The translations under genes and the position numbers were made by a program. Positions 1 to 13,596 of a stretch of DNA of 64,000 nucleotides are shown piece by piece. The stretch is taken from NCBI RefSeq assembly GCF_003334355.1, contig NZ_QOWP01000002.1. One strand, given 5' to 3'. Origin of the DNA: Escherichia coli. GTDB lineage: Bacteria; Pseudomonadota; Gammaproteobacteria; Enterobacterales; Enterobacteriaceae. Position 1 is the stretch's first letter. The number at the start of each line of letters is the position of its first letter. The notes below the pieces were generated by a model, which worked only from the letters and a program-made list of their open reading frames with translations, ran no database searches and had not been told where the DNA came from.

Positions 1-77
1 AAGCTGTTGAGTCGTTTTAAGTGTAATTCGGGGCAGAATTGGTAAAGAGAGTCGTGTAAAATATCGAGTTCGCACAT
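1..77 (-). CDS. IS10 transposase, N-terminal 26 codons only (gene continues past window edge)
   Basis: Minus-strand ATG at 77..75 followed by codons for MCELDILHDSLYQFCPELHLKRLNSL, the recalled N-terminus of IS10 transposase. Confidence 0.8.
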   Translation of the reverse strand, partial: MCELDILHDSLYQFCPELHLKRLNS

Positions 78-133
78 TTTGTTGTCTGATTATTGATTTT
101 TGGCGAAACCATTTGATCATATGACAAGATGTG
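70..133 (+). ncRNA. RNA-OUT-like antisense hairpin region of IS10 (pOUT transcript directed toward the IS terminus)
   Basis: Inverted repeat cacattttgttgtc (73-86) / gacaagatgtg (123-133) overlapping the transposase start on the opposite strand. Position matches the known IS10 RNA-IN/RNA-OUT layout. Boundaries approximate. Confidence 0.45.
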
Positions 134-184
134 TATCTACCTTAACTTAATGATTTTGATAAAAATCATTAGGGGATTCATCAG

Positions 185-2859
185 AACCCAGCCTGCAACG
201 TGTAGCTAAATACCATAAAAACTTCCCCCATGCGACGCTCGCCGCACTGGCAGAACTGCTGGCGTTAACAGAACCACCAGCCCGCCCTGGTTATCCAATC
301 ATCGAAGACAAAAAGCTGCCTGCACAGCAAAAAGCACGCGATGAATACTGGCGTACGCTGTTACAAACGCTGATGGCATCGCAGCCACAACTGGCAGCAG
401 AAGTGATGCCGTGGTTAAGTACTCAACCCCAGTCAGTGCTGAAGAGTTATTTATCGGCACCGCCCAAACCGGTTATTGATGGCACCGATAACAGCAATCT
501 GCCAGAAATCCTCGTTTCACCACCGTGGCGTAGTAAGAAAAAAATGACAGCTCCACGTCTTGATTTGGCACCGCTCGAATTAACTCCGCAAGTTTACTGG
601 CAACCAGGCGAACAAGAGAGGCTTGCCGCCACTGAGCCTGCCCGTTATTTCAGCACGGAATCTCTTGCGCAACGCATGGAACAAAAAAGTGGACGAGTTG
701 TATTACAGGAACTGGGTTTTGGGGATGATGTATGGCTGTTTCTGAATTATATACTCCCCGGAAAACTGGATGCTGCACGCAATTCACTCTTTGTTCAGTG
801 GCATTACTACCAGGGGCGGGTTGAAGAGATCCTGAATGGCTGGAACTCCCCGGAAGCACAATTAGCAGAACAGGCGCTCCGCAGCGGTCACATAGAAGCG
901 TTAATTAACATATGGGAAAATGACAACTACTCACATTATCGTCCGGAAAAGAGTGTCTGGAACCTGTATTTATTGGCACAGTTGCCGCGTGAGATGGCTT
1001 TGACCTTCTGGCTGCGTATCAATGAGAAAAAGCATCTGTTCGCGGGTGAGGACTATTTTCTCAGTATCCTCGGATTGGATGCGCTACCAGGTCTGCTGTT
1101 GGCTTTTTCACATCGTCCAAAAGAAACATTTCCGTTAATTTTAAATTTTGGCGCAACAGAACTGGCGCTGCCTGTTGCCCACGTCTGGCGACGTTTCGCG
1201 GCGCAGCGTGATCTGGCTCGCCAGTGGATTTTACAATGGCCGGAACATACGGCTAGTGCACTTATCCCTCTTGTCTTTACCAAACCCAGCGATAATAGCG
1301 AAGCCGCATTACTTGCCCTGCGTTTACTGTACGAACAGGGACATGGCGAATTGCTACAAACCGTGGCAAACCGCTGGCAGCGTACAGATGTATGGTCTGC
1401 CCTAGAGCAGTTGCTTAAACAGGGTCCAATGGACATTTACCCGGCACGCATTCCAAAAGCCCCTGATTTCTGGCATCCGGCAATGTGGTCCAGGCCTCGA
1501 CTTATCACTAATAATCAGCCTGTTACCGGTGACGCTCTGGAAATTATCGGCGAAATGCTGCGCTTTACCCAGGGGGGACGTTTTTATAGCGGGCTGGAAC
1601 AACTGAAAACGTTCTGCCAGCCACAAACGCTGGCAGCTTTTGCCTGGGATCTCTTCACTGCGTGGCAACAAGCTGGTGCCCCCGCAAAAGACAACTGGGC
1701 ATTTCTGGCGTTAAGTCTCTTTGGTGACGAAAGCACGGCACGGGATCTGACGACACAGATCCTCGCCTGGCCACAAGAAGGCAAATCTGCCCGTGCTGTC
1801 AGCGGCCTGAACATCCTTACCCTGATGAATAATGATATGGCGCTGATACAGCTGCATCATATATCGCAACGGGCTAAATCCCGCCCCTTACGTGATAACG
1901 CGGCGGAATTTCTTCAGGTGGTCGCAGAAAATCGCGGGCTAAGCCAGGAAGAGCTAGCGGACAGATTAGTCCCAACCCTGGGCCTTGATGATCCGCAGGC
2001 GTTGAGTTTTGATTTTGGTCCCCGGCAGTTTACCGTTCGCTTCGATGAAAACCTCAACCCGGTTATCTTTGATCAGCAAAACGTTCGCCAGAAAAGCGTT
2101 CCCCGTTTGCGCGCCGATGACGATCAACTGAAAGCGCCCGAGGCACTGGCCCGACTAAAAGGGCTAAAAAAAGATGCTACTCAGGTGAGCAAAAACCTGC
2201 TCCCGCGTCTTGAAGCTGCCCTACGTACCACCCGACGCTGGTCGCTGGCAGATTTTCATTCTCTGTTTGTTAATCATCCCTTTACCCGTCTGGTTACCCA
2301 GCGATTAATATGGGGGGGTTATCCGGCAAATGAACCGCGTCGTTTACTCAACGCCTTTCGTGTGGCCGCAGAGGGGGAGTTCTGCAATGCGCAAGATGAG
2401 CCAATTGACCTGCCTGCGGACGCTCTGATTGGCATTGCCCACCCGTTAGAAATGGCAGTAGAAATGCGCAGTGAATTTGCACAGCTTTTTGCCGATTACG
2501 AAATTATGCCGCCTTTTCGCCAGTTGTCGCGCCGCACGGTGCTGCTCACACCTGACGAGTCAACCAGTAACAGCCTGACTCGCTGGGAAGGTAAATCCGC
2601 TACCGTTGGGCAACTTATGGGAATGCGATACAAAGGCTGGGAGTCAGGCTATGAGGACACATTTGTCTATGACCTGGGCGAGTACCGGCTGGTCCTTAAG
2701 TTTTCACCCGGTTTTAACCACTACAATGTTGATAGCAAAGCGTTAATGAGCTGCCGTTCTCTTCGAGTGTACCGTGACAATAAATCCGTCACTTTTGCCG
2801 AACTTGATGTGTTTGATTTGAGTGAGGCGTTAAGCGCACCTGACGTCATTTTCCATTAA
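185..2859 (+). pseudogene. yehI: yehI-like DUF4132 protein, 3' portion; 5' end replaced by the IS10 insertion
   Basis: Reading frame is open from 163 to the stop at 2859 with protein-like translation, but has no ATG/GTG/TTG before 373. The ORF track gives 828 aa from the first internal Met. K-12 yehI is 1210 aa (recall) and lies directly upstream of yehK. Confidence 0.7.
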
Positions 2860-2919
2860 AACACAGCGGGCAGTGATGCGACTGCCCGTTATCTACACGA
2901 CTTACCAGCGGGGAAAGCG

Positions 2920-3237
2920 ATGATCGTGCAAAAAGAGCTGGTTGCTATTTACGATTATGAGGTCCCTGTACCTGAAGATCCGTTTTCCTTCAGACTTGAG
3001 ATCCATAAATGCCCTGAATTATTTACAGGTTCCGTCTATCGACTGGAGCGATTCCGGCTACATCCAACATTTCATCAACGTGATCGAGAAGATGCTGACC
3101 CGCTAATAAATGATGCGTTGATTTATATAAGAGATGAGTGTAATGATGAGCGGAAATTACGAGGTGAATCACCTGAAACTGTAATAGCAATTTTTAATCG
3201 TGAACTACAGAATATATTCAACCAAGAAATAGAATAA
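2920..3237 (+). CDS. yehK: YehK, small protein of unknown function (105 aa)
   Basis: ORF-track 105-aa ORF located between yehI and yehL, matching K-12 order and length. Confidence 0.8.
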   Translation: MIVQKELVAIYDYEVPVPEDPFSFRLEIHKCPELFTGSVYRLERFRLHPTFHQRDREDADPLINDALIYIRDECNDERKLRGESPETVIAIFNRELQNIFNQEIE

Positions 3238-3408
3238 TATACTCTAAATAATTCAAATTGGTCCGATCCGGCGCAACGTCCCAATGGCCTGGATTATAAA
3301 TCTCATTATCTTAATTGCAACGGGGTCCAGCCGTGGTTATAATTCGTTCGTTGGAACACGATGTTGCACAGGCTGCGGTGTTGGGCCTGAAAATAGTAAA
3401 TAAAAGAA

Positions 3409-3432
3409 CCTGCCTCACCAGCAGGTTTTTTT
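3409..3432 (+). terminator. Rho-independent terminator-like hairpin between yehK and yehL
   Basis: cctgc-ctcacca-gcagg stem-loop followed by ttttttt. Confidence 0.5.
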
Positions 3433-3543
3433 ATTTACTGTGATCTGCTTTCCAGATATTTTCCGCTCAAACAACTAATGCGCCAAACATTTATTGCGCG
3501 TAAAATATCGTTTATTTCATTAATACATTTCAGGGATGAATAT

Positions 3544-4632
3544 ATGTCACCGCAGAATAATCATCTGCAGCGTCCGCCTGCCGCTGTGTTATACGCCGAT
3601 GAACTGGCAAAATTAAAACAAAATGATAACGCACCTTGCCCGCCCGGTTGGCAGTTAAGTTTGCCTGCGGCCCGTGCTTTTATCCTTGGCGATAGCGCGC
3701 AAAATATTAGCCGTAAAGTGGTGATTAGTCCCTCTGCTGTCGAACGTATGTTAGTCACTCTTGCCACCGGGCGCGGTTTGATGTTGGTGGGGGAACCTGG
3801 CACCGCAAAATCTCTCCTGTCTGAATTACTGGCAACCGCTATTAGCGGCGATGCCGGGTTAACCATCCAGGGCGGCGCATCTACCACTGAAGATCAAATC
3901 AAATACGGCTGGAACTACGCTCTGCTTATCAATCATGGTCCATCAACGGAAGCGCTGGTCCCTGCCCCGCTTTACCAGGGAATGCGCGACGGCAAAATCG
4001 TCCGTTTTGAAGAGATAACGCGTACACCGCTGGAAGTGCAAGACTGTCTGTTAGGTATGCTTTCTGACCGGGTTATGACGGTGCCGGAACTCACCAGTGA
4101 AGCCAGTCAGCTCTATGCGCGAGAAGGCTTTAATATTATTGCCACTGCCAATACCCGCGATCGCGGCGTCAATGAGATGAGTGCCGCGCTAAAGCGTCGC
4201 TTCGATTTTGAAACTGTCTTTCCGATTATGGATTTCGCCCAGGAGCTGGAACTGGTCGCCAGTGCTTCGGCGCGTTTGCTGGCCCATAGCGGTATTCCGC
4301 ATAAAGTGCCTGACGCGGTACTGGAGTTACTGGTCCGCACCTTCCGCGATCTGCGTGCCAACGGCGAAAAGAAAACGTCAATGGATACCCTGACGGCAAT
4401 TATGTCCACCGCTGAAGCCGTGAACGTGGCCCACGCAGTGGGCGTCCGCGCCTGGTTTTTAGCGAATCGCGCAGGTGAGCCAGCCGACCTGGTGGACTGC
4501 ATTGCCGGAACCATCGTCAAAGATAATGAAGAAGATCGCGCTCGTCTGCGCCGTTACTTCGAACAGCGTGTCGCCACACATAAAGAAGCTCACTGGCAGG
4601 CTTATTATCAAGCCCGCCACCGCCTGCCGTGA
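3544..4632 (+). CDS. yehL: YehL, MoxR-like AAA+ ATPase (362 aa)
   Basis: Walker A GEPGTAKS at 3790-3813; Walker B-like IVRFEEI; LKRRFDF motif typical of MoxR-type ATPases. Start trimmed to Met 23 of the ORF (MSPQNN) to match the K-12 length. Confidence 0.9.
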   Translation: MSPQNNHLQRPPAAVLYADELAKLKQNDNAPCPPGWQLSLPAARAFILGDSAQNISRKVVISPSAVERMLVTLATGRGLMLVGEPGTAKSLLSELLATAISGDAGLTIQGGASTTEDQIKYGWNYALLINHGPSTEALVPAPLYQGMRDGKIVRFEEITRTPLEVQDCLLGMLSDRVMTVPELTSEASQLYAREGFNIIATANTRDRGVNEMSAALKRRFDFETVFPIMDFAQELELVASASARLLAHSGIPHKVPDAVLELLVRTFRDLRANGEKKTSMDTLTAIMSTAEAVNVAHAVGVRAWFLANRAGEPADLVDCIAGTIVKDNEEDRARLRRYFEQRVATHKEAHWQAYYQARHRLP

Positions 4633-4642
4633 GGAAAGATGC

Positions 4643-6922
4643 ATGAGCGAGCCGTTAATTGTCGGCATCCGGCATCATAGTCCGGCCTGCGCCCGGCTGG
4701 TGAAATCGTTAATCGAAAGCCAGCGGCCACGATACGTGTTGATTGAAGGCCCGGCTGATTTTAATGACCGGGTAGACGAACTGTTTTTAGCCCACCAGCT
4801 TCCGGTAGCTATTTACAGTTATTGCCAGTATCAGGACGGTGCAGCCCCCGGGCGTGGTGCCTGGACGCCATTTGCTGAATTTTCGCCGGAGTGGCAGGCG
4901 CTACAAGCCGCTCGTCGTATTCAGGCACAAACTTACTTCATCGATTTGCCTTGCTGGGCGCAGAGTGAAGAAGAGGACGATTCGCCTGATACGCAAGAGG
5001 AAAGCCAGACCTTGCTGCTGCGTGCCACCCGCATGGATAACAGCGATACCCTGTGGGATCACTTGTTCGAAGATGAAAGCCAGCAAACTGCATTACCCTC
5101 TGCGCTGGCGCACTATTTTGCCCAACTGCGGGGCGACGCCTCCGGCGATGCGCTCAATCGTCAGCGCGAAGCCTTTATGGCCCGCTGGATTGGATGGGCG
5201 ATGCAGCAAAATAATGGCGACGTGTTAGTTGTCTGCGGTGGCTGGCACGCTCCGGCACTGGCAAAGATGTGGCGCGAATGCCCTCAGAAAATTAACAAGC
5301 CAGAATTGCCCTCGCTGGCAGATGCCGTTACAGGTTGTTATCTCACACCCTACAGTGAAAAGCGCCTTGATGTGCTGGCAGGATACCTTTCAGGAATGCC
5401 TGCCCCGGTATGGCAAAACTGGTGCTGGCAGTGGGGCTTGCAGAAGGCCGGTGAACAACTGCTAAAAACTATCCTTACCCGTTTGCGCCAGCACAAATTG
5501 CCCGCTTCTACCGCGGATATGGCTGCCGCTCATCTGCATGCGATGGCGCTGGCACAGTTGCGCGGTCATACACTACCGTTACGCACTGACTGGCTGGATG
5601 CCATAGCAGGCTCGCTGATTAAAGAAGCCCTGAACGCGCCGTTGCCGTGGAGCTATCGCGGCGTTATTCATCCCGATACCGATCCGATTCTGCTAACGTT
5701 GATAGACACATTAGCGGGTGACGGATTCGGTAAACTTGCCCCTTCTACGCCACAACCGCCTCTGCCAAAAGATGTCACCTGCGAACTGGAACGTACCGCA
5801 ATCTCCCTTCCGGCGGAGCTTACCTTAAATCGCTTTACCCCCGATGGGCTGGCGCAAAGTCAGGTGTTACATCGGCTGGCAATACTGGAGATCCCTGGGA
5901 TTGTACGCCAGCAGGGAAGTACACTGACACTTGCAGGCAACGGTGAAGAACGCTGGAAATTAACCCGCCCGCTTAGCCAGCATGCGGCATTGATTGAGGC
6001 CGCCTGTTTTGGTGCCACACTCCAGGAAGCCGCACGCAATAAATTAGAAGCCGATATGCTGGACGCGGGCGGAATCGGCAGTATCACCACATGTCTTAGC
6101 CAGGCGGCGTTAGCGGGTCTGGCGTCCTTCAGTCAACAATTACTGGAGCAACTCACACTATTAATCGCCCAGGAAAATCAATTTGCCGAAATGGGCCAGG
6201 CGCTGGAAGTGCTTTATGCCTTATGGCGGCTGGATGAAATTAGCGGTATGCAAGGCGCGCAGATATTACAAACGACGTTATGCGCGACTATCGATCGCAC
6301 GCTGTGGCTGTGTGAATCTAACGGCAGACCGGATGAAAAGGAGTTTCACGCTCACCTGCATAGCTGGCAAGCGCTTTGCCATATTCTGCGCGATCTACAT
6401 AGCGGCGTTAATTTACCCGGCGTTTCTCTTTCTGCGGCGGTAGCCTTACTGGAGCGACGCAGTCAGGCAATTCATGCCCCGGCGCTGGATCGCGGCGCGG
6501 CTCTTGGCGCACTAATGCGTCTGGAACATCCCAACGCCAGTGCCGAAGCGGCGCTGACGATGCTGGCGCAGTTATCCCCGGCACAATCTGGTGAGGCGCT
6601 GCACGGTTTGCTGGCGCTGGCCCGCCATCAACTGGCCTGTCAGCCGGCATTTATCGCCGGTTTCAGCAGTCATTTAAATCAACTGAGTGAAGCCGATTTT
6701 ATTAACGCCCTGCCCGATTTACGCGCGGCGATGGCCTGGCTACCACCACGAGAACGCGGGACGCTGGCGCATCAGGTGCTTGAGCATTATCAACTGGCGC
6801 AACTTCCCGTTTCGGCGCTGCAAATGCCGTTGCATTGTCCACCACAGGCCATTGCACATCATCAACAACTCGAACAGCAGGCACTGGCATCGCTGCAAAA
6901 CTGGGGAGTTTTCCATGTCTGA
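4643..6922 (+). CDS. yehM: YehM, large conserved protein of unknown function (759 aa)
   Basis: Start MSEPLIVG lies 10 nt after the yehL stop, preceded by gaggaaag. Length matches K-12 yehM. Confidence 0.9.
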   Translation: MSEPLIVGIRHHSPACARLVKSLIESQRPRYVLIEGPADFNDRVDELFLAHQLPVAIYSYCQYQDGAAPGRGAWTPFAEFSPEWQALQAARRIQAQTYFIDLPCWAQSEEEDDSPDTQEESQTLLLRATRMDNSDTLWDHLFEDESQQTALPSALAHYFAQLRGDASGDALNRQREAFMARWIGWAMQQNNGDVLVVCGGWHAPALAKMWRECPQKINKPELPSLADAVTGCYLTPYSEKRLDVLAGYLSGMPAPVWQNWCWQWGLQKAGEQLLKTILTRLRQHKLPASTADMAAAHLHAMALAQLRGHTLPLRTDWLDAIAGSLIKEALNAPLPWSYRGVIHPDTDPILLTLIDTLAGDGFGKLAPSTPQPPLPKDVTCELERTAISLPAELTLNRFTPDGLAQSQVLHRLAILEIPGIVRQQGSTLTLAGNGEERWKLTRPLSQHAALIEAACFGATLQEAARNKLEADMLDAGGIGSITTCLSQAALAGLASFSQQLLEQLTLLIAQENQFAEMGQALEVLYALWRLDEISGMQGAQILQTTLCATIDRTLWLCESNGRPDEKEFHAHLHSWQALCHILRDLHSGVNLPGVSLSAAVALLERRSQAIHAPALDRGAALGALMRLEHPNASAEAALTMLAQLSPAQSGEALHGLLALARHQLACQPAFIAGFSSHLNQLSEADFINALPDLRAAMAWLPPRERGTLAHQVLEHYQLAQLPVSALQMPLHCPPQAIAHHQQLEQQALASLQNWGVFHV

Positions 6923-8051
6923 ACTGAACGATCTTCTGACCACCCGTGAGCTACAACGCTGGCGATTAATTCTTGGCGAAGCGGCAGAAACGACGCTTTG
7001 TGGGCTGGATGACAACGCCCGGCAGATAGACCACGCGCTGGAGTGGCTGTATGGGCGCGATCCTGAACGGCTCCAGCGTGGTGAACGTTCCGGTGGATTA
7101 GGTGGCTCAAATCTCACCACCCCTGAGTGGATCAACAGTATTCACACGCTGTTTCCGCAGCAGGTGATTGAGCGGCTGGAAAGCGATGCCGTGCTGCGCT
7201 ACGGCATTGAAGATGTGGTGACGAATCTCGACGTGCTGGAACGTATGCAGCCTTCTGAAAGCCTGCTACGCGCTGTTTTGCACACCAAACATCTGATGAA
7301 CCCCGAAGTACTGGCTGCCGCCCGCCGGATAGTGTGCCAGGTTGTTGAAGAAATTATGGCTCGACTGGCAAAGGAAGTTCGCCAGGCTTTTTCTGGTGTC
7401 CGCGATCGCCGTCGCCGTTCATTTATTCCACTGGCGCGAAACTTTGATTTCAAAAGTACTCTGCGCGCCAACCTGCAACACTGGCACCCGCAACACGGCA
7501 AGTTGTATATCGAATCCCCCCGCTTTAACAGCCGCATTAAACGCCAAAGCGAACAATGGCAACTGGTCTTACTGGTTGATCAAAGCGGATCGATGGTCGA
7601 TTCGGTGATCCACTCTGCGGTAATGGCGGCCTGTTTGTGGCAGTTACCCGGCATTCGTACCCATCTGGTGGCGTTTGACACAAGCGTCGTTGATCTCACG
7701 GCAGACGTTGCCGATCCGGTAGAGTTATTAATGAAAGTACAGTTGGGCGGCGGGACCAATATCGCCAGTGCCGTGGAGTATGGTCGGCAACTTATTGAAC
7801 AACCAGCGAAAAGCGTCATTATCCTCGTGAGCGATTTTTACGAAGGGGGTTCATCATCATTACTGACGCATCAGGTGAAAAAGTGTGTCCAGAGCGGCAT
7901 CAAAGTGCTGGGACTGGCAGCGCTCGATAGCACCGCAACACCTTGCTATGACCGCGATACGGCCCAGGCGCTGGTTAATGTCGGCGCACAAATAGCCGCC
8001 ATGACGCCGGGCGAGCTGGCATCATGGCTTGCGGAGAATCTTCAGTCATGA
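6915..8051 (+). CDS. yehP: YehP, von Willebrand factor A (VWA) domain protein (378 aa)
   Basis: MIDAS motif DQSGSM (DxSxS) at 7578-7595 in the context VLLVDQSGSMVDS. Start overlaps the yehM stop by 8 nt. Confidence 0.9.
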   Translation: MSELNDLLTTRELQRWRLILGEAAETTLCGLDDNARQIDHALEWLYGRDPERLQRGERSGGLGGSNLTTPEWINSIHTLFPQQVIERLESDAVLRYGIEDVVTNLDVLERMQPSESLLRAVLHTKHLMNPEVLAAARRIVCQVVEEIMARLAKEVRQAFSGVRDRRRRSFIPLARNFDFKSTLRANLQHWHPQHGKLYIESPRFNSRIKRQSEQWQLVLLVDQSGSMVDSVIHSAVMAACLWQLPGIRTHLVAFDTSVVDLTADVADPVELLMKVQLGGGTNIASAVEYGRQLIEQPAKSVIILVSDFYEGGSSSLLTHQVKKCVQSGIKVLGLAALDSTATPCYDRDTAQALVNVGAQIAAMTPGELASWLAENLQS

Positions 8052-10051
8052 ATTCACTACGTCCGGAATTATTAGAACTGACACCGCAGGCCCTGACGGC
8101 GTTAAGCAATGCCGGTTTTGTTAAGCGCAGTCTTAAGGAACTGGAAAATGGCAACGTCCCGGAGATCAGCCATGAGAACGACGCTTTAATCGCCACCTTC
8201 AGTGACGGTGTCCGTACCCAGCTGGCGAACGGCCAGGCACTGAAAGAGGCTCAGTGCAGTTGCGGGGCCAACGGTATGTGCCGTCATCGCGTGATGCTGG
8301 TGTTAAGTTATCAACGACTTTGTGCCACCACTCAGTCTACGGAAAAAGAAGAAGAGTGGGATCCGGCAATCTGGCTGGAAGAACTGGCTACCCTTCCCGA
8401 TGCTACCCGCAAACGCGCACAGGCGCTGGTCGCTAAAGGCATCACCATTGAGTTGTTCTGTGCGCCGGGTGAAATTCCCTCTGCCCGCTTACCGATGAGC
8501 GATGTGCGTTTTTATTCCCGCAGCAGTATTCGTTTCGCCCGTTGTGATTGTATTGAAGGCACACTTTGCGAACATGTCGTACTGGCGGTACAGGCCTTCG
8601 TCGAGGCCAAAGCGCAGCAAGCAGAATTTAACCATTTAATCTGGCAGATGCGCAGCGAACACGTCACATCATCTGACGATCCGTTTGCCAGCGAAGAAGG
8701 CAACGCGTGTCGTCAATATGTTCAGCAATTAAGCCAGACATTATGGCTTGGCGGCATCAGCCAGCCGCTCATCCATTACGAGGCAGCATTCAACCGCGCA
8801 TTGCAGGCGGCAGAGACCTGCAACTGGCGCTGGGTGAGTGAATCGCTACGGCAACTGCGCGCCAGCGTTGATGCCTTCCACGCCCGCGCCAGCCACTATA
8901 ATGCCGGAGAATGCTTACATCAGCTTGCGGCATTAAACAGTCGATTAAATTGCGCACAAGAGATGGCCCGGCGCGACAGTATTGGTGAAGTTCCTCCTGT
9001 GCCGTGGCGCACGGTCGTTGGCTCTGGCATTGCCGGAGAAGCAAAGCTTGATCATCTGCGGCTGGTGTCTTTAGGTATGCGTTGCTGGCAGGATATTGAG
9101 CATTATGGTTTACGCATCTGGTTTACCGATCCCGACACCGGCAGTATTTTGCACCTTTCGCGCAGTTGGCCGCGAAGTGAACAGGAAAACTCACCGGCAG
9201 CTACGCGTCGGCTGTTTAGTTTTCAGGCTGGCGCACTGGCGGGCGGGCAAATTGTTTCACAAGCAGCAAAACGCAGTGCCGATGGCGAGCTGCTGTTAGC
9301 TACCCGCAACCGCTTAAGCAGCGTTGTGCCGCTGTCGCCTGATGCCTGGCAAATGTTGAGCGCGCCGTTACGCCAGCCGGGCATTGTGGCTTTGCGGGAA
9401 TATTTACGCCAGCGTCCCCCCGCCTGCATACGGCCTCTTAATCAGGTCGATAACTTATTTATTCTGCCGGTCGCTGAGTGTATTTCGCTCGGTTGGGATA
9501 GCAGCCGCCAGACGCTGGATGCGCAGGTAATCAGCGGCGAAGGTGAAGATAATCTGCTGACGTTATCACTGCCAGCCTCAGCCAGCGCGCCTTATGCCGT
9601 TGAACGCATGGCGGCGCTTTTGCAACAAACAGACGACCCCGTGTATCTGGTTTCTGGCTTTGTCAGTTTTGTTGATGGGCAATTGACACTGGAACCACAG
9701 GTAATGATGACAAAGACTCGTGCCTGGGCGCTGGACGCAGAAACTGCGCCTGTGGTGGTATCACTACCTTCTGCCAGCGTTCTGCCTGTGCCGTCTACTG
9801 CTCATCAGTTGCTGATGCGCTGCCAGGCGTTACTTATTCAACTGCTCCATAACGGCTGGCGCTATCAGGAACAGAGCGCTATTAGTCAGGCAGAGTTGCT
9901 GGCGAATGACCTCACCGCGGTGGGTTTTTATCGGCTGGCACATGTGTTGGCACAATTTCGTAATACAGAAAGCGAGGCACGGGTAGAAGCAATGAATAAC
10001 GGTGTTTTGCTTTGCGAACAATTATTCCCCATGCTTCAGCAACAAGGATGA
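8048..10051 (+). CDS. yehQ: YehQ, SWIM zinc-finger protein
   Basis: Two CxC-x(n)-CxH motifs: CSCGANGMCRH (8255-8287) and CDCIEGTLCEH (8543-8575). ATG at 8048 overlaps the yehP stop (ATGA). Start is uncertain; the ORF track begins at 8024. Confidence 0.8.
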   Translation: MNSLRPELLELTPQALTALSNAGFVKRSLKELENGNVPEISHENDALIATFSDGVRTQLANGQALKEAQCSCGANGMCRHRVMLVLSYQRLCATTQSTEKEEEWDPAIWLEELATLPDATRKRAQALVAKGITIELFCAPGEIPSARLPMSDVRFYSRSSIRFARCDCIEGTLCEHVVLAVQAFVEAKAQQAEFNHLIWQMRSEHVTSSDDPFASEEGNACRQYVQQLSQTLWLGGISQPLIHYEAAFNRALQAAETCNWRWVSESLRQLRASVDAFHARASHYNAGECLHQLAALNSRLNCAQEMARRDSIGEVPPVPWRTVVGSGIAGEAKLDHLRLVSLGMRCWQDIEHYGLRIWFTDPDTGSILHLSRSWPRSEQENSPAATRRLFSFQAGALAGGQIVSQAAKRSADGELLLATRNRLSSVVPLSPDAWQMLSAPLRQPGIVALREYLRQRPPACIRPLNQVDNLFILPVAECISLGWDSSRQTLDAQVISGEGEDNLLTLSLPASASAPYAVERMAALLQQTDDPVYLVSGFVSFVDGQLTLEPQVMMTKTRAWALDAETAPVVVSLPSASVLPVPSTAHQLLMRCQALLIQLLHNGWRYQEQSAISQAELLANDLTAVGFYRLAHVLAQFRNTESEARVEAMNNGVLLCEQLFPMLQQQG

Positions 10052-10129
10052 AATAGTGCTTTTTACTAAGAGTTCTACTCCAGTTCCGGACTGCTCACGC
10101 CACGGTATTAGGCATATTCTATATAGCCC

Positions 10130-10152
10130 CTGGTGAGAGTCACCAGTTTCTT
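10130..10152 (+). terminator. Hairpin downstream of yehQ (possible terminator)
   Basis: ctggtga-gag-tcaccag stem-loop followed by tttcttg. Confidence 0.4.
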
Positions 10153-10175
10153 GATTAAATAAAATGGAGTTTTAC

Positions 10176-10637
10176 ATGAAGGCTTTCAATAAGCTGTTTT
10201 CCCTCGTTGTTGCATCTGTTCTGGTTTTCTCTCTTGCTGGCTGCGGTGACAAAGAAGAATCGAAGAAATTCAGCGCCAATCTGAACGGCACTGAAATTGC
10301 CATTACCTATGTCTACAAAGGTGACAAGGTGCTTAAGCAATCTTCTGAAACCAAAATTCAATTTGCCTCCATTGGTGCAACCACCAAAGAAGATGCTGCC
10401 AGGGCACTTGAGCCGTTAAGCGCCAAATACAAAAACATCGCGGGTGTTGAAGAAAAATTAACCTATACCGATACCTACGCGCAGGAAAACGTGACTATCG
10501 ATATGGAAAAAGTGGATTTTAAAGCCCTGCAGGGTATTTCAGGAATCAACGTTTCTGCTGAAGATGCCAAAAAAGGTATCACTATGGCGCAAATGGAACT
10601 GGTGATGAAAGCCGCTGGTTTTAAAGAAGTGAAATAA
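10176..10637 (+). CDS. yehR: YehR lipoprotein (153 aa)
   Basis: Signal peptide with lipobox LAGC (MKAFNKLFSLVVASVLVFSLAGCGD). Position and length match K-12. Confidence 0.85.
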   Translation: MKAFNKLFSLVVASVLVFSLAGCGDKEESKKFSANLNGTEIAITYVYKGDKVLKQSSETKIQFASIGATTKEDAARALEPLSAKYKNIAGVEEKLTYTDTYAQENVTIDMEKVDFKALQGISGINVSAEDAKKGITMAQMELVMKAAGFKEVK

Positions 10638-10677
10638 TCTGTCGGCGGCCATGTTTCGCATGGCCGCCATACCCGTC

Positions 10678-11148
10678 TTAGCTTTTCTTCACATGCTGGC
10701 GCGCTGCCAGTCCACGCAGAAAATAACGTAAAAATTGATCGCCGCATTCGCGGAAGTTTTTATGATCCGGTGCACGCATCATCGCCGTAATTTCCGGCAT
10801 CGAAACGCGGAACTGCTGTTCGGTGAGGATCGCCAGAATGTCATCGGTTTTCAGCGAAAACGCGATGCGTAATTTTTTCAGCACGATGTTGTTATTAATG
10901 CGACGTTCCGGCTCCAGTGCCGGAGCAGACTCATCCTTGCCGCGTTTTTCATAAATCAGGCCATTGAGGAATGACGACAAAACAATGTCCGGACAACGCT
11001 GAAAACCCTCTTCGTCTTCTTTACGTAGCCAGACGGCGATCTGTTCCGCGGTGGCTTCGACATTACCCAGCGCCAGAATACGCACCAGGTCATTATTATT
11101 GGCTTTCAAAATATAGCGCACGCTGCGCAGAATATCGTTACTTAGCAT
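10678..11148 (-). CDS. yehS: YehS, DUF1456-family protein (156 aa)
   Basis: ORF trimmed to Met MLSNDILRSV to give the K-12 length. Convergent with yehR. Confidence 0.8.
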   Translation of the reverse strand: MLSNDILRSVRYILKANNNDLVRILALGNVEATAEQIAVWLRKEDEEGFQRCPDIVLSSFLNGLIYEKRGKDESAPALEPERRINNNIVLKKLRIAFSLKTDDILAILTEQQFRVSMPEITAMMRAPDHKNFRECGDQFLRYFLRGLAARQHVKKS

Positions 11149-11194
11149 GAGGCCTTCAGGTGTTGATGAGGCAAAAAGCCATTTTAGCAGTCTT

Positions 11195-11914
11195 TTACAG
11201 GCCAATCGCCTCTTTTAAGCTTTTCAGATAACGGCGGCTGACCGGCACGGTTAAGCCATTACGCAAAATCAACTCGGCCTGGCCGTTATCTTCCAGACGA
11301 ATCTCCTGTAAATGCGCGAGGTTAACCAGATACTGACGATGGCAGCGCAGTAGTGGTGTACGACTTTCCAGGGTACGTAATGTCAATTCGGTAAAGCCCT
11401 CTTTCCCTTCGTGGCTGGTAACGTAGACACCGCTCATCCGACTGCTGACAAATGCCACATCTTTCATTTGCAGCAAATAAATCCGACTATGCCCAGTACA
11501 AGGGATAAATTTCAGCGCCTGTTGATTTTCTGGTAACAGCGAAACATCCTGCTTGCTGCGTTCCTGCCGCAAACGCGCCAGCGTTTTCTCCAGTCGCGCT
11601 TCATCAATTGGCTTCAGCAGATAATCAAAGGCGTGTTCTTCAAAGGCTTTAATGGCGTATTCGTCAAACGCGGTGAGAAAAACAATATACGGACGATGTT
11701 CCGGGTCGAGCATCCCCACCATTTCCAGACCACTGATGCGCGGCATCTGGATATCGAGAAACAGCACATCCGGGCGCAGTTTATGCACCGCGCCGATCCC
11801 TTCCACGGCGTTTGAACACTCACCAACGATTTCAATATCGCTCTGCTCCTGCAAAAATACGCGCAGGTTCTCCCGTGCTAACGGTTCATCATCGACAATT
11901 AAGACTTTAATCAT
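11195..11914 (-). CDS. btsR: BtsR (YehT), LytTR-family response regulator (239 aa)
   Basis: Receiver domain signature [16 protein letters not shown]...LFLDIQMP with a C-terminal LytTR-type region. Start overlaps the btsS stop by 4 nt. Confidence 0.9.
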
Positions 11915-13596
11915 GCCTCGTCCCTCCATGGTAGTCGTAACGTTATTCGGGTGTAACTATCAGGCTCACAGGCGACGCTTATCCCATAGTCATCGCCAAA
12001 CCGTTCACGTAAACGCTTATCCACCAGATTCATCCCCAGCCCACTGGCATTGGTTACCGGTTGATACAAACCGGCATTGTCTTCGATCTCCAGCATTAAA
12101 TGTTGCCCCTCACGTCGGGCGCTGATTGCCACTCGCCCTGTATCCAGCAGTTGTGATGTCCCATGTTTAATGGCGTTTTCCACTATCGGTTGCAGGGTAA
12201 ACGCGGGCAATTGCTGCTGGGATAATTCTTGCGGAATAGCAATGTTGACCTGCAACCGCGACTGGAAGCGCGCCTTTTCAATTTGCAGATAAGCATTCAC
12301 ATGTTCAATTTCGTCGGCGAGAGTAACAAACTCCGAAGGCCGCTTTAAGTTTTTGCGGAAAAAAGTGGAAAGATACTGCACCAGCTGGCTGGCCTGTTCG
12401 CTGTCGCGACGGATCACCGCTTTAATGGTGTTAAGCGCATTAAACAAAAAATGGGGATTCACCTGGGCGTGAAGCAGTTTGATCTCTGACTGGGTGAGCA
12501 TCGCTTTTTGCCGCTCATATTGCCCGGCAAGGATCTGCGCCGAAAGCAGTTGCGCAATCCCCTCGCCCAGCGTGCGGTTGATTGAACTGAATAAACGGTT
12601 TTTGGCTTCATACAATTTGATGGTGCCCATCACCCGCTGATTTTCACCACGCAACGGAATTACCAGCGTCGACCCCAGTTTGCATTGCGGATGCAAAGAG
12701 CAACGGTAAGGTACTTCGTTGCCATCAGCGTAGACCACTTCACCGGTTTCAATCGCTTTTAAGGTATAAGTCGAAGAAATCGGTTTGCCGGGTAAATGGT
12801 GGTCGTCACCAATTCCGGTAAAGGCTAGCAATTTCTCTCGATCGGTAATCGCGACTGCACCAATATCCAGCTCCTGATACAGCACCTGTGCCACTTTCAT
12901 GCTGTTCACTTCGTTAAACCCCTGGCGCAAAATGCCTTCCGTCGAGGCCGCCACTTTCAGCGCAGTGGCAGAAAAAGCTGAAGTGTATTTTTCAAACATC
13001 GCGCGTTTATCGAGCAATATACGCATAAACAGCGCCGCGCCGACGGTATTGGTGACCATCATTGGCGCAGCAATATTACTCACCAGACGTACCGCATCTT
13101 CATAAGGTCGGGCGATCGCCAGGATGATCAACATTTGCACCATTTCAGCGACGAACGTGACGGCACCGGCGGTAATGGGGTTAAAGACTTTATCAGTGCG
13201 CCCGCGACGGATCAGGATGCTGTGTACCAGGCCGCCGAGCAATCCTTCAACGATGGTTGAGATCATGCAACTTAGCGCGGTCATGCCCCCCATCGAATAT
13301 CGATGTAAGCCGCCGGTCAGACCAACCAGCCCACCGACGACCGGACCGCCGAGTAAGCCGCCCATTACCGCGCCTATCGCACGGGTATTGGCAATAGAAT
13401 CGTCAATGTGCAACCCAAACCAGGTGCCCATGATGCAGAAGATGGAAAAGACGATGTAGCAGAGAAATTTATGCGGCAGACGAACCGTGACCTGCATTAA
13501 CGGTATGAATAATGGCGTTTTACTCATTAACCACGCAATGACTAAAAAAACGCACATCTGCTGAAGCAGCAGCAACACCAGATTAAAATCGTACAT
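11911..13596 (-). CDS. btsS: BtsS (YehU), LytS-type sensor histidine kinase (561 aa)
   Basis: Multi-pass N-terminal membrane domain and histidine kinase core ([16 protein letters not shown]). Length matches K-12. Confidence 0.9.

Follow-up and report, generated by a model that had tools for sequence, protein, structure and literature searches.

The 64,000-nucleotide stretch of Escherichia coli DNA analysed here (contig NZ_QOWP01000002.1 of assembly GCF_003334355.1; hereafter the window) begins with the end of an IS10-type insertion sequence (IS) lodged in yehI, a gene for a DUF4132 protein. This raises the question of what lies to the left of position 1, a solitary copy of IS10 or one arm of the composite transposon Tn10, and of what kind of strain carries it. 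Window positions 1–184 are most probably the outer end of IS10-Left of a composite Tn10 inserted in yehI. An earlier note on the same DNA had pointed to either a Tn10- or IS10-bearing strain or a natural insertion, and both descriptions appear to apply. That note is refined in three respects: the end is of the IS10-Left variant and not a generic IS10, a composite Tn10 is most likely and not a solitary IS10, and the background is not K-12.

The IS10 end at the start of the window

As the earlier note had proposed, the first 184 bases are the reverse complement of the IS10 outside end. They correspond on the minus strand to IS10 nt 184 (window position 1) down to nt 1 (position 184), the outer 184 bp of the left-hand Tn10 arm, IS10-Left, and the remainder of the element lies before the window. 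In a megablast search of 5426 complete E. coli genomes the segment found matches in 2236 E. coli records, the best of them 184/184 (E = 1e-90), and the best genome matches all lay under genes annotated 'IS4-like element ISVsa5 family transposase'. Comparison of the 64-kb window revealed no second IS10 sequence besides 1–184.

Assignment to IS10 follows from the outside-end terminal sequence CTGATGAATCCCCTAATGATTTT together with near-identity to reference IS10, and from a transposase start at nt 108 that is overlapped by the antisense RNA-OUT. The terminal 23 bp (window 162–184, minus strand; IS10 nt 1–23), read directly as CTGATGAATCCCCTAATGATTTT, are the same in IS10-Left and IS10-Right, and from established knowledge of Tn10 we take them to be the transposase binding and cleavage site. 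An IHF site is predicted at window 143–155 on the minus strand (IS10 nt 30–42), where the plus strand reads TAACTTAATGATT; its position is that established for the IS10 outside end, and we presume it to be the same IHF binding site. Transposase expression is limited by Dam methylation of a GATC in the transposase promoter pIN, and the sole GATC of the 184 bp (window 115–118; IS10 nt 67–70) presumably is this site, overlapping the −10 region of pIN and taking part in methylation control.

The transposase gene occupies window 1–77 on the minus strand, its ATG at 77–75 (IS10 nt 108–110) placing the start where the earlier note had it. It is cut by the window start after its first 25 codons, and 377 further codons fall beyond the window. 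Translation from position 77 gives MCELDILHDSLYQFCPELHLKRLNS, an N-terminus common to both transposases of the plasmid R100. RNA-OUT lies at window 70–139 on the plus strand (Rfam RF00240, 97.3 bits against a gathering score of 41, full model length 1–70). RNA-OUT limits transposase expression by base-pairing to the transposase mRNA at its 5′ end. We take the RNA at 70–139 to be this antisense repressor of transposase translation, transcribed from the promoter pOUT towards the outside end; its direction is the same as that of the yehI 3′ part.

IS10-Left and IS10-Right

The two IS10 arms of the R100 Tn10 (NC_002134.1) differ by 15 nt and 4 amino acids over the whole element, and 6 of these nucleotides fall in the first 184. 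All 184 window bases are identical to the arm on the jemA/gltS side, whereas 178/184 (96.7%) match the tetD-side copy. The six differences from the latter are at IS nt 24, 25, 27, 47, 83 and 107, and the window carries the jemA/gltS-side base at every one; from nt 108 to nt 184 the two arms are identical. Aligning the segment to both arms, as had been suggested, thus separates the variants, and with identities of 100% to IS10-Left and 96.7% to IS10-Right neither value comes anywhere near falling far below the about 90% that the earlier note had named as a floor for IS10.

The naming of the arms follows secondary papers, which use IS10-R for the arm beside tetD and IS10-L for the arm beside jemA (PMC9412624, PMC5571418), together with a copy in NEB5alpha at 168,787–170,113 that its authors call IS10L (PMC11481808). 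Over 1329 nt this NEB5alpha copy has a single difference from the R100 jemA-side arm and 16 from the tetD-side arm, and its outside end, in fhuA, contains window 1–184 exactly. As judged from the match to the jemA-side arm and to the NEB5alpha IS10L, the window begins inside IS10-Left. What it shares with IS10-Left of R100/NR1 is all 184 bases, among them the terminal 23 bp, the start of the transposase gene at nt 108 and the gene for RNA-OUT; the differences are that only 184 of 1329 bp are visible here and that the site is yehI of a wild E. coli chromosome. With IS10-Right, the active arm of Tn10 (named 'ISVsa5 family' by PGAP), it shares the element family, the terminal 23 bp and nt 108–184, and is set apart by the six substitutions within nt 24–107.

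Two of the IS10-Left-specific bases, at window 78 and 102 (IS10 nt 107 and 83), lie in the region where RNA-IN and RNA-OUT pair. In the Rfam alignment the base at window 78 changes a C–G pair of the RNA-OUT stem to U–G, and that at window 102 belongs to the loop through which RNA-OUT pairs with the transposase mRNA at its 5′ end. From these positions, cross-repression between the two arms of Tn10 might be slightly mismatched.

The junction with yehI and the host background

In genomes whose yehI is unbroken (thousands, MG1655 and PSS-12 among them) the alignment starts exactly at window 185. At the empty site the sequence is ...gataaaaaca, then AACCCAGCC, then tgcaacgtg...; the base preceding 185 is A in this empty site and G at the IS end, so that the boundary between 184 and 185 is unambiguous. 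The earlier note's reading of an IS10-type element in yehI at the window start holds. The insertion follows nt 958 of the 3633-nt yehI, in codon 320 of 1210. The 3′ remnant of the gene (window 185–2859, plus strand; codons 320–1210) aligns in frame to the annotated yehI of both MG1655 and PSS-12. It is severed from its own start codon and promoter, and the first in-frame start after the junction is an ATG at 373.

The nine bases at 185–193, AACCCAGCC (yehI nt 959–967), had been proposed as the target site. The empty sites of PSS-12 and MG1655 contain them once; here they are the right-hand copy of a target-site duplication, since the same 9 bp abut the opposite IS10 end in two further assemblies described below. 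The IS10 target consensus, reportedly set out by Halling and Kleckner in 1982, is said to be NGCTNAGCN. Against this consensus AACCCAGCC matches at 4/6 specified positions, the C at position 3 and a perfect AGC half, of which the earlier note had named the AGC half. A 4/6 match is what an ordinary, non-hotspot site would typically show and has no diagnostic value in either direction.

Among complete genomes the closest is that of E. coli PSS-12 (NZ_AP027697.1; human faeces, Ecuador), which is 100% identical over window 185–24000 and differs by 14 mismatches and one gap over the whole 64 kb (99.98% identity), with yehI intact. PSS-12 carries an IS5 in psuG, at about window 56841–56844, that the window is without. 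The first kilobase of the flank is also 100% identical to MG1655; over the window as a whole identity to MG1655 is 98.1–99.3%. A K-12 derivative carrying Tn10, of the DH10B, XL1-Blue or JM109 type, is ruled out by this figure as against the 99.98% to PSS-12. MG1655 is without IS10, as the earlier note had it (PMC11148124, Table 2). As judged from these identities, the host is a natural, non-K-12 lineage closely related to PSS-12. Being near-isogenic and intact at yehI, PSS-12 provides the empty site, and the insertion is evolutionarily recent.

The same allele in public assemblies

The right junction was looked up by querying a public assembly index with the 828-residue product of the yehI remnant. 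A Logan contig from ERR4578542, identical in five other samples (L010), corresponds to window 155–12859 with 0 mismatches and begins 30 nt inside the IS10-Left end. An assembly artefact that wrongly joined an IS10 end to yehI might be suspected where an IS sits at the extreme edge of the window, IS copies being classic sites of misassembly. Against this, the identical junction is present in an independent k=31 assembly common to six sequencing runs, the break falls exactly at the IS terminus, and the reciprocal junction has the matching 9-bp duplication; an artefact is scarcely credible.

Four other contigs that encode the 828-aa YehI remnant are not insertions. Two (L007 and L011) were aligned and have single-base indels in A-runs. 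The other two (L008 and L009) have the same split of the gene into 346 and 828 aa without a 1.3-kb gap, and were judged on this gene split alone.

For the left junction, products were predicted that consist of YehI residues 1–322 (PSS-12 sequence), the duplicated 9 bp and an IS10 inside or outside end, read on for 30 nt or to the first stop codon. The sole prediction on record was YehI 1–322 followed by PDESPNDFGK, found on three contigs. The sequences of two of these, L012 from run SRR10357312 and L013 from run SRR3823860, were read and terminate in ...GATAAAAACAAACCCAGCC followed directly by CTGATGAATCCCCTAATGATTTTGGTAAAA, that is, in the yehI 5′ part, AACCCAGCC and the IS10-Right outside end. 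Mismatches to PSS-12 are few (2/8792 positions in L012, 1/4604 in L013), which places both contigs in the lineage of the window. As same-lineage contigs carry the yehI 5′ part and AACCCAGCC and then an IS10 end, AACCCAGCC is a true target-site duplication, abutting the IS end at window 185–193 and the opposite IS end in L012 and L013; the two copies come from separate assemblies of one lineage and not from one molecule. The other IS end and the 9-bp direct repeat that the earlier note had expected upstream were thus found in these relatives, as an IS10-Right outside end, and lie outside the window itself.

Inverted IS10 arms are therefore present, with both outside ends abutting the duplicated target (on the right in the window and L010, on the left in L012 and L013, across different samples). 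With the IS10-Left outside end facing one part of yehI, the IS10-Right outside end facing the other and a shared 9 bp at the two junctions, the arrangement is that expected of a composite Tn10 that moved as a unit. Tn10 would give the junctions GATAAAAATCATTAGGGGATTCATCAG next to AACCCAGCC and AACCCAGCC next to CTGATGAATCCCCTAATGATTTTGGTAAAA, and would not place TTACCAAAATCATTAGGGGATTCATCAG beside the yehI 3′ part.

A solitary IS10-Left of 1329 bp in yehI, with one outside and one inside end and with the IS10-Right junction stemming from another genome or event, would instead put its inside end (…GGGGATCTCTCAG in the IS orientation) 1329 bp from the junction, abutting AACCCAGCC. The window displays one end only, and the exact 184-bp end occurs in many copies in natural genomes, for example in 25–26 places in AR436 and AR_0374. 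The predicted inside-end products (L and R types, at least 30 nt) were not on record in the look-ups, which covered part of the index; nor were those for an IS10-Left outside end at the left junction or for an IS10-Right outside end read through to the stop codon. The one left junction recorded for the lineage joins an IS10-Right outside end to the identical 9 bp, and two independent insertions at one non-hotspot 9-mer in one clone are improbable. Known solitary copies differ accordingly from the insertion described here, in which an outside end appears to stand at each junction, that of IS10-Left on the right and that of IS10-Right on the left. The fhuA::IS10L of NEB5alpha has the same outside-end sequence as the window, with one outside and one inside end. 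An IS10R-like copy in yehI of E. coli DSM 103246 (NZ_CP019944.1; L006, 6702–8030), with 5 mismatches to IS10-Right, is bounded by one outside and one inside end and has a 9-bp duplication of its own. On balance a solitary IS10-Left is unlikely.

Several points weigh against a composite Tn10 and in favour of caution. The element body, the tet genes and the left junction all lie outside the window. The left and right junctions come from differently named runs, one sample being named per contig, and their presence in one genome is inferred. The absence of a cut product from look-ups of part of the index is weak negative evidence. Solitary IS10-Left copies exist and move, as in NEB5alpha, JM109 and DH10B, one having been caught transposing into a plasmid. 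The junction of 1–184 with 185 onwards occurs in none of the 5426 complete RefSeq E. coli genomes. Finally, a simple sigma-70 scan of window 1–400 reported no promoter-like site and flagged neither pIN nor pOUT, so that the positions of both promoters rest on the literature.

Between the two junctions, a structure derived from Tn10 by rearrangement, with internal DNA lost or gained or with arms bracketing something other than tet(B), is conceivable, as only the outer 30–184 bp of each arm have been seen and truncated and rearranged remnants are common on plasmids (PMC9412624). No observation points to it, and both ends are those of the canonical R100 Tn10 in the canonical left and right arrangement, which makes rearrangement highly improbable.

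Public sequencing runs that carry the yehI::Tn10 allele number at least six to nine and come from three submission series. The look-ups also show that searching public read assemblies for a predicted truncated protein can recover a transposon junction that has not itself been seen.

The places where contigs end form a separate observation. The k=31 Logan contigs (the start of L010 and the ends of L012 and L013) stop exactly 30 nt, or k−1, into the IS10-Left and IS10-Right ends, which means that each type of end has more than one flank in those samples. Extra copies of IS10 or Tn10, for example on a plasmid, are likely there, as far as contig ends can tell. The window starts at IS10 nt 184, which is 107 + 77, nt 107 being the last difference between IS10-Left and IS10-Right before nt 410; in a genome that has a single copy of each arm, de Bruijn assembly at k=77 would break off a contig at precisely this nucleotide, nt 184. 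This match may be a coincidence, and it conflicts with the hint of multiple copies from the Logan contigs.

Other features of the window

The genes yehI, yehK, yehL, yehM, yehP and yehQ occupy window 185–11900, in a cluster that continues upstream in the locus L005. It encodes WGR/DUF4132 paralogues, a MoxR-type AAA_5 ATPase, a DUF5682 protein, a vWA protein and a SWIM zinc-finger protein. The annotation of MG1655 lists yehQ and the upstream DUF4132 paralogue as pseudogenes, and that of PSS-12 gives yehQ an internal stop; the yeh cluster may be decaying in this strain group.

Three further RNA features were found with Rfam. OrzO-P (RF02083), an antitoxin RNA of the ZorO-OrzO type I toxin-antitoxin family, lies in the yehK-yehL spacer at 3357–3432 on the plus strand (101.3 bits), and six-frame translation of 3238–3480 gave no obvious ZorO-like toxin open reading frame. 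A Peptidase-S11 RNA lies beside pbpG at 23868–23948 on the minus strand (72.8 bits), and naRNA4, a REP-derived nucleoid-associated RNA, at 35597–35674 on the minus strand (88.3 bits). The last two score above the gathering threshold and are ordinary E. coli features.

In E. coli MSB1_1D (H102; NZ_LR898868.1, 1578673–1607688) an IS10 end matching window 1–184 lies within about 5 kb of the yehI region; the search had joined it to the locus as a second piece.

Discussion

The element itself is already known: it is textbook IS10/Tn10 of the IS4 family, and everything seen matches it. A search of the literature for yehI with IS10 or Tn10 returned nothing relevant, the hits being authors' names or papers on other subjects.

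Transposase binds the terminal 23 bp of the element, which is excised by double-strand cuts and inserted at a 9-bp staggered cut, giving rise to the duplication. By such cut-and-paste transposition Tn10 would have entered yehI after nt 958, duplicating the 9-bp AACCCAGCC. Leftwards from window position 1 there would then follow the rest of IS10-Left, jemA/gltS, jemB, jemC, tetR, tetA(B), tetC, tetD, an inverted IS10-Right, AACCCAGCC and the yehI 5′ part. The published gene order of Tn10 is jemABC-tetR-tetA-tetC-tetD-IS10R (PMC5571418, PMC9412624). In one genome, both junctions would thus enclose the tet(B) module and the jem genes between the arms, and this interior lies before the window start.

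The insertion would truncate YehI after about 322 residues. Transcription from pOUT may read through into the yehI remnant and yehK-yehLMPQ and so partly relieve polarity. Activation of adjacent genes by IS10 read-through is reported in earlier literature that PMC11481808 cites; given such read-through, and a pOUT that points the same way as the yehI remnant, yehK and yehLMPQ, some downstream expression may persist.

The copy in DSM 103246 lies ~690 bp downstream of the site in the window, with the duplication TGCGGAGCG (window 875–883), so that yehI has been struck by IS10 at least twice in different lineages. It could be supposed that yehI::Tn10 is a stable chromosomal marker of a circulating tetracycline-resistant clone that persists for reasons beyond hitch-hiking, loss of yehI being selected; this is very unlikely. 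If it were true, the allele would be a knockout of one DUF4132 gene of the yehH-yehQ cluster with pOUT re-driving the genes downstream, and independent IS10 insertions such as that in DSM 103246 would hint at selection against yehI.

What this adds to existing knowledge is where the element inserted and that a handful of public sequencing runs carry the insertion; this is of little consequence beyond annotation. The junction of IS10-Left with AACCCAGCC and yehI is a convenient clone-specific marker. In annotation, yehI of the window is a transposon-disrupted pseudogene, a chromosomal tet(B) just upstream of the window is probable, and the strain is a wild relative of PSS-12 and not a K-12 derivative.

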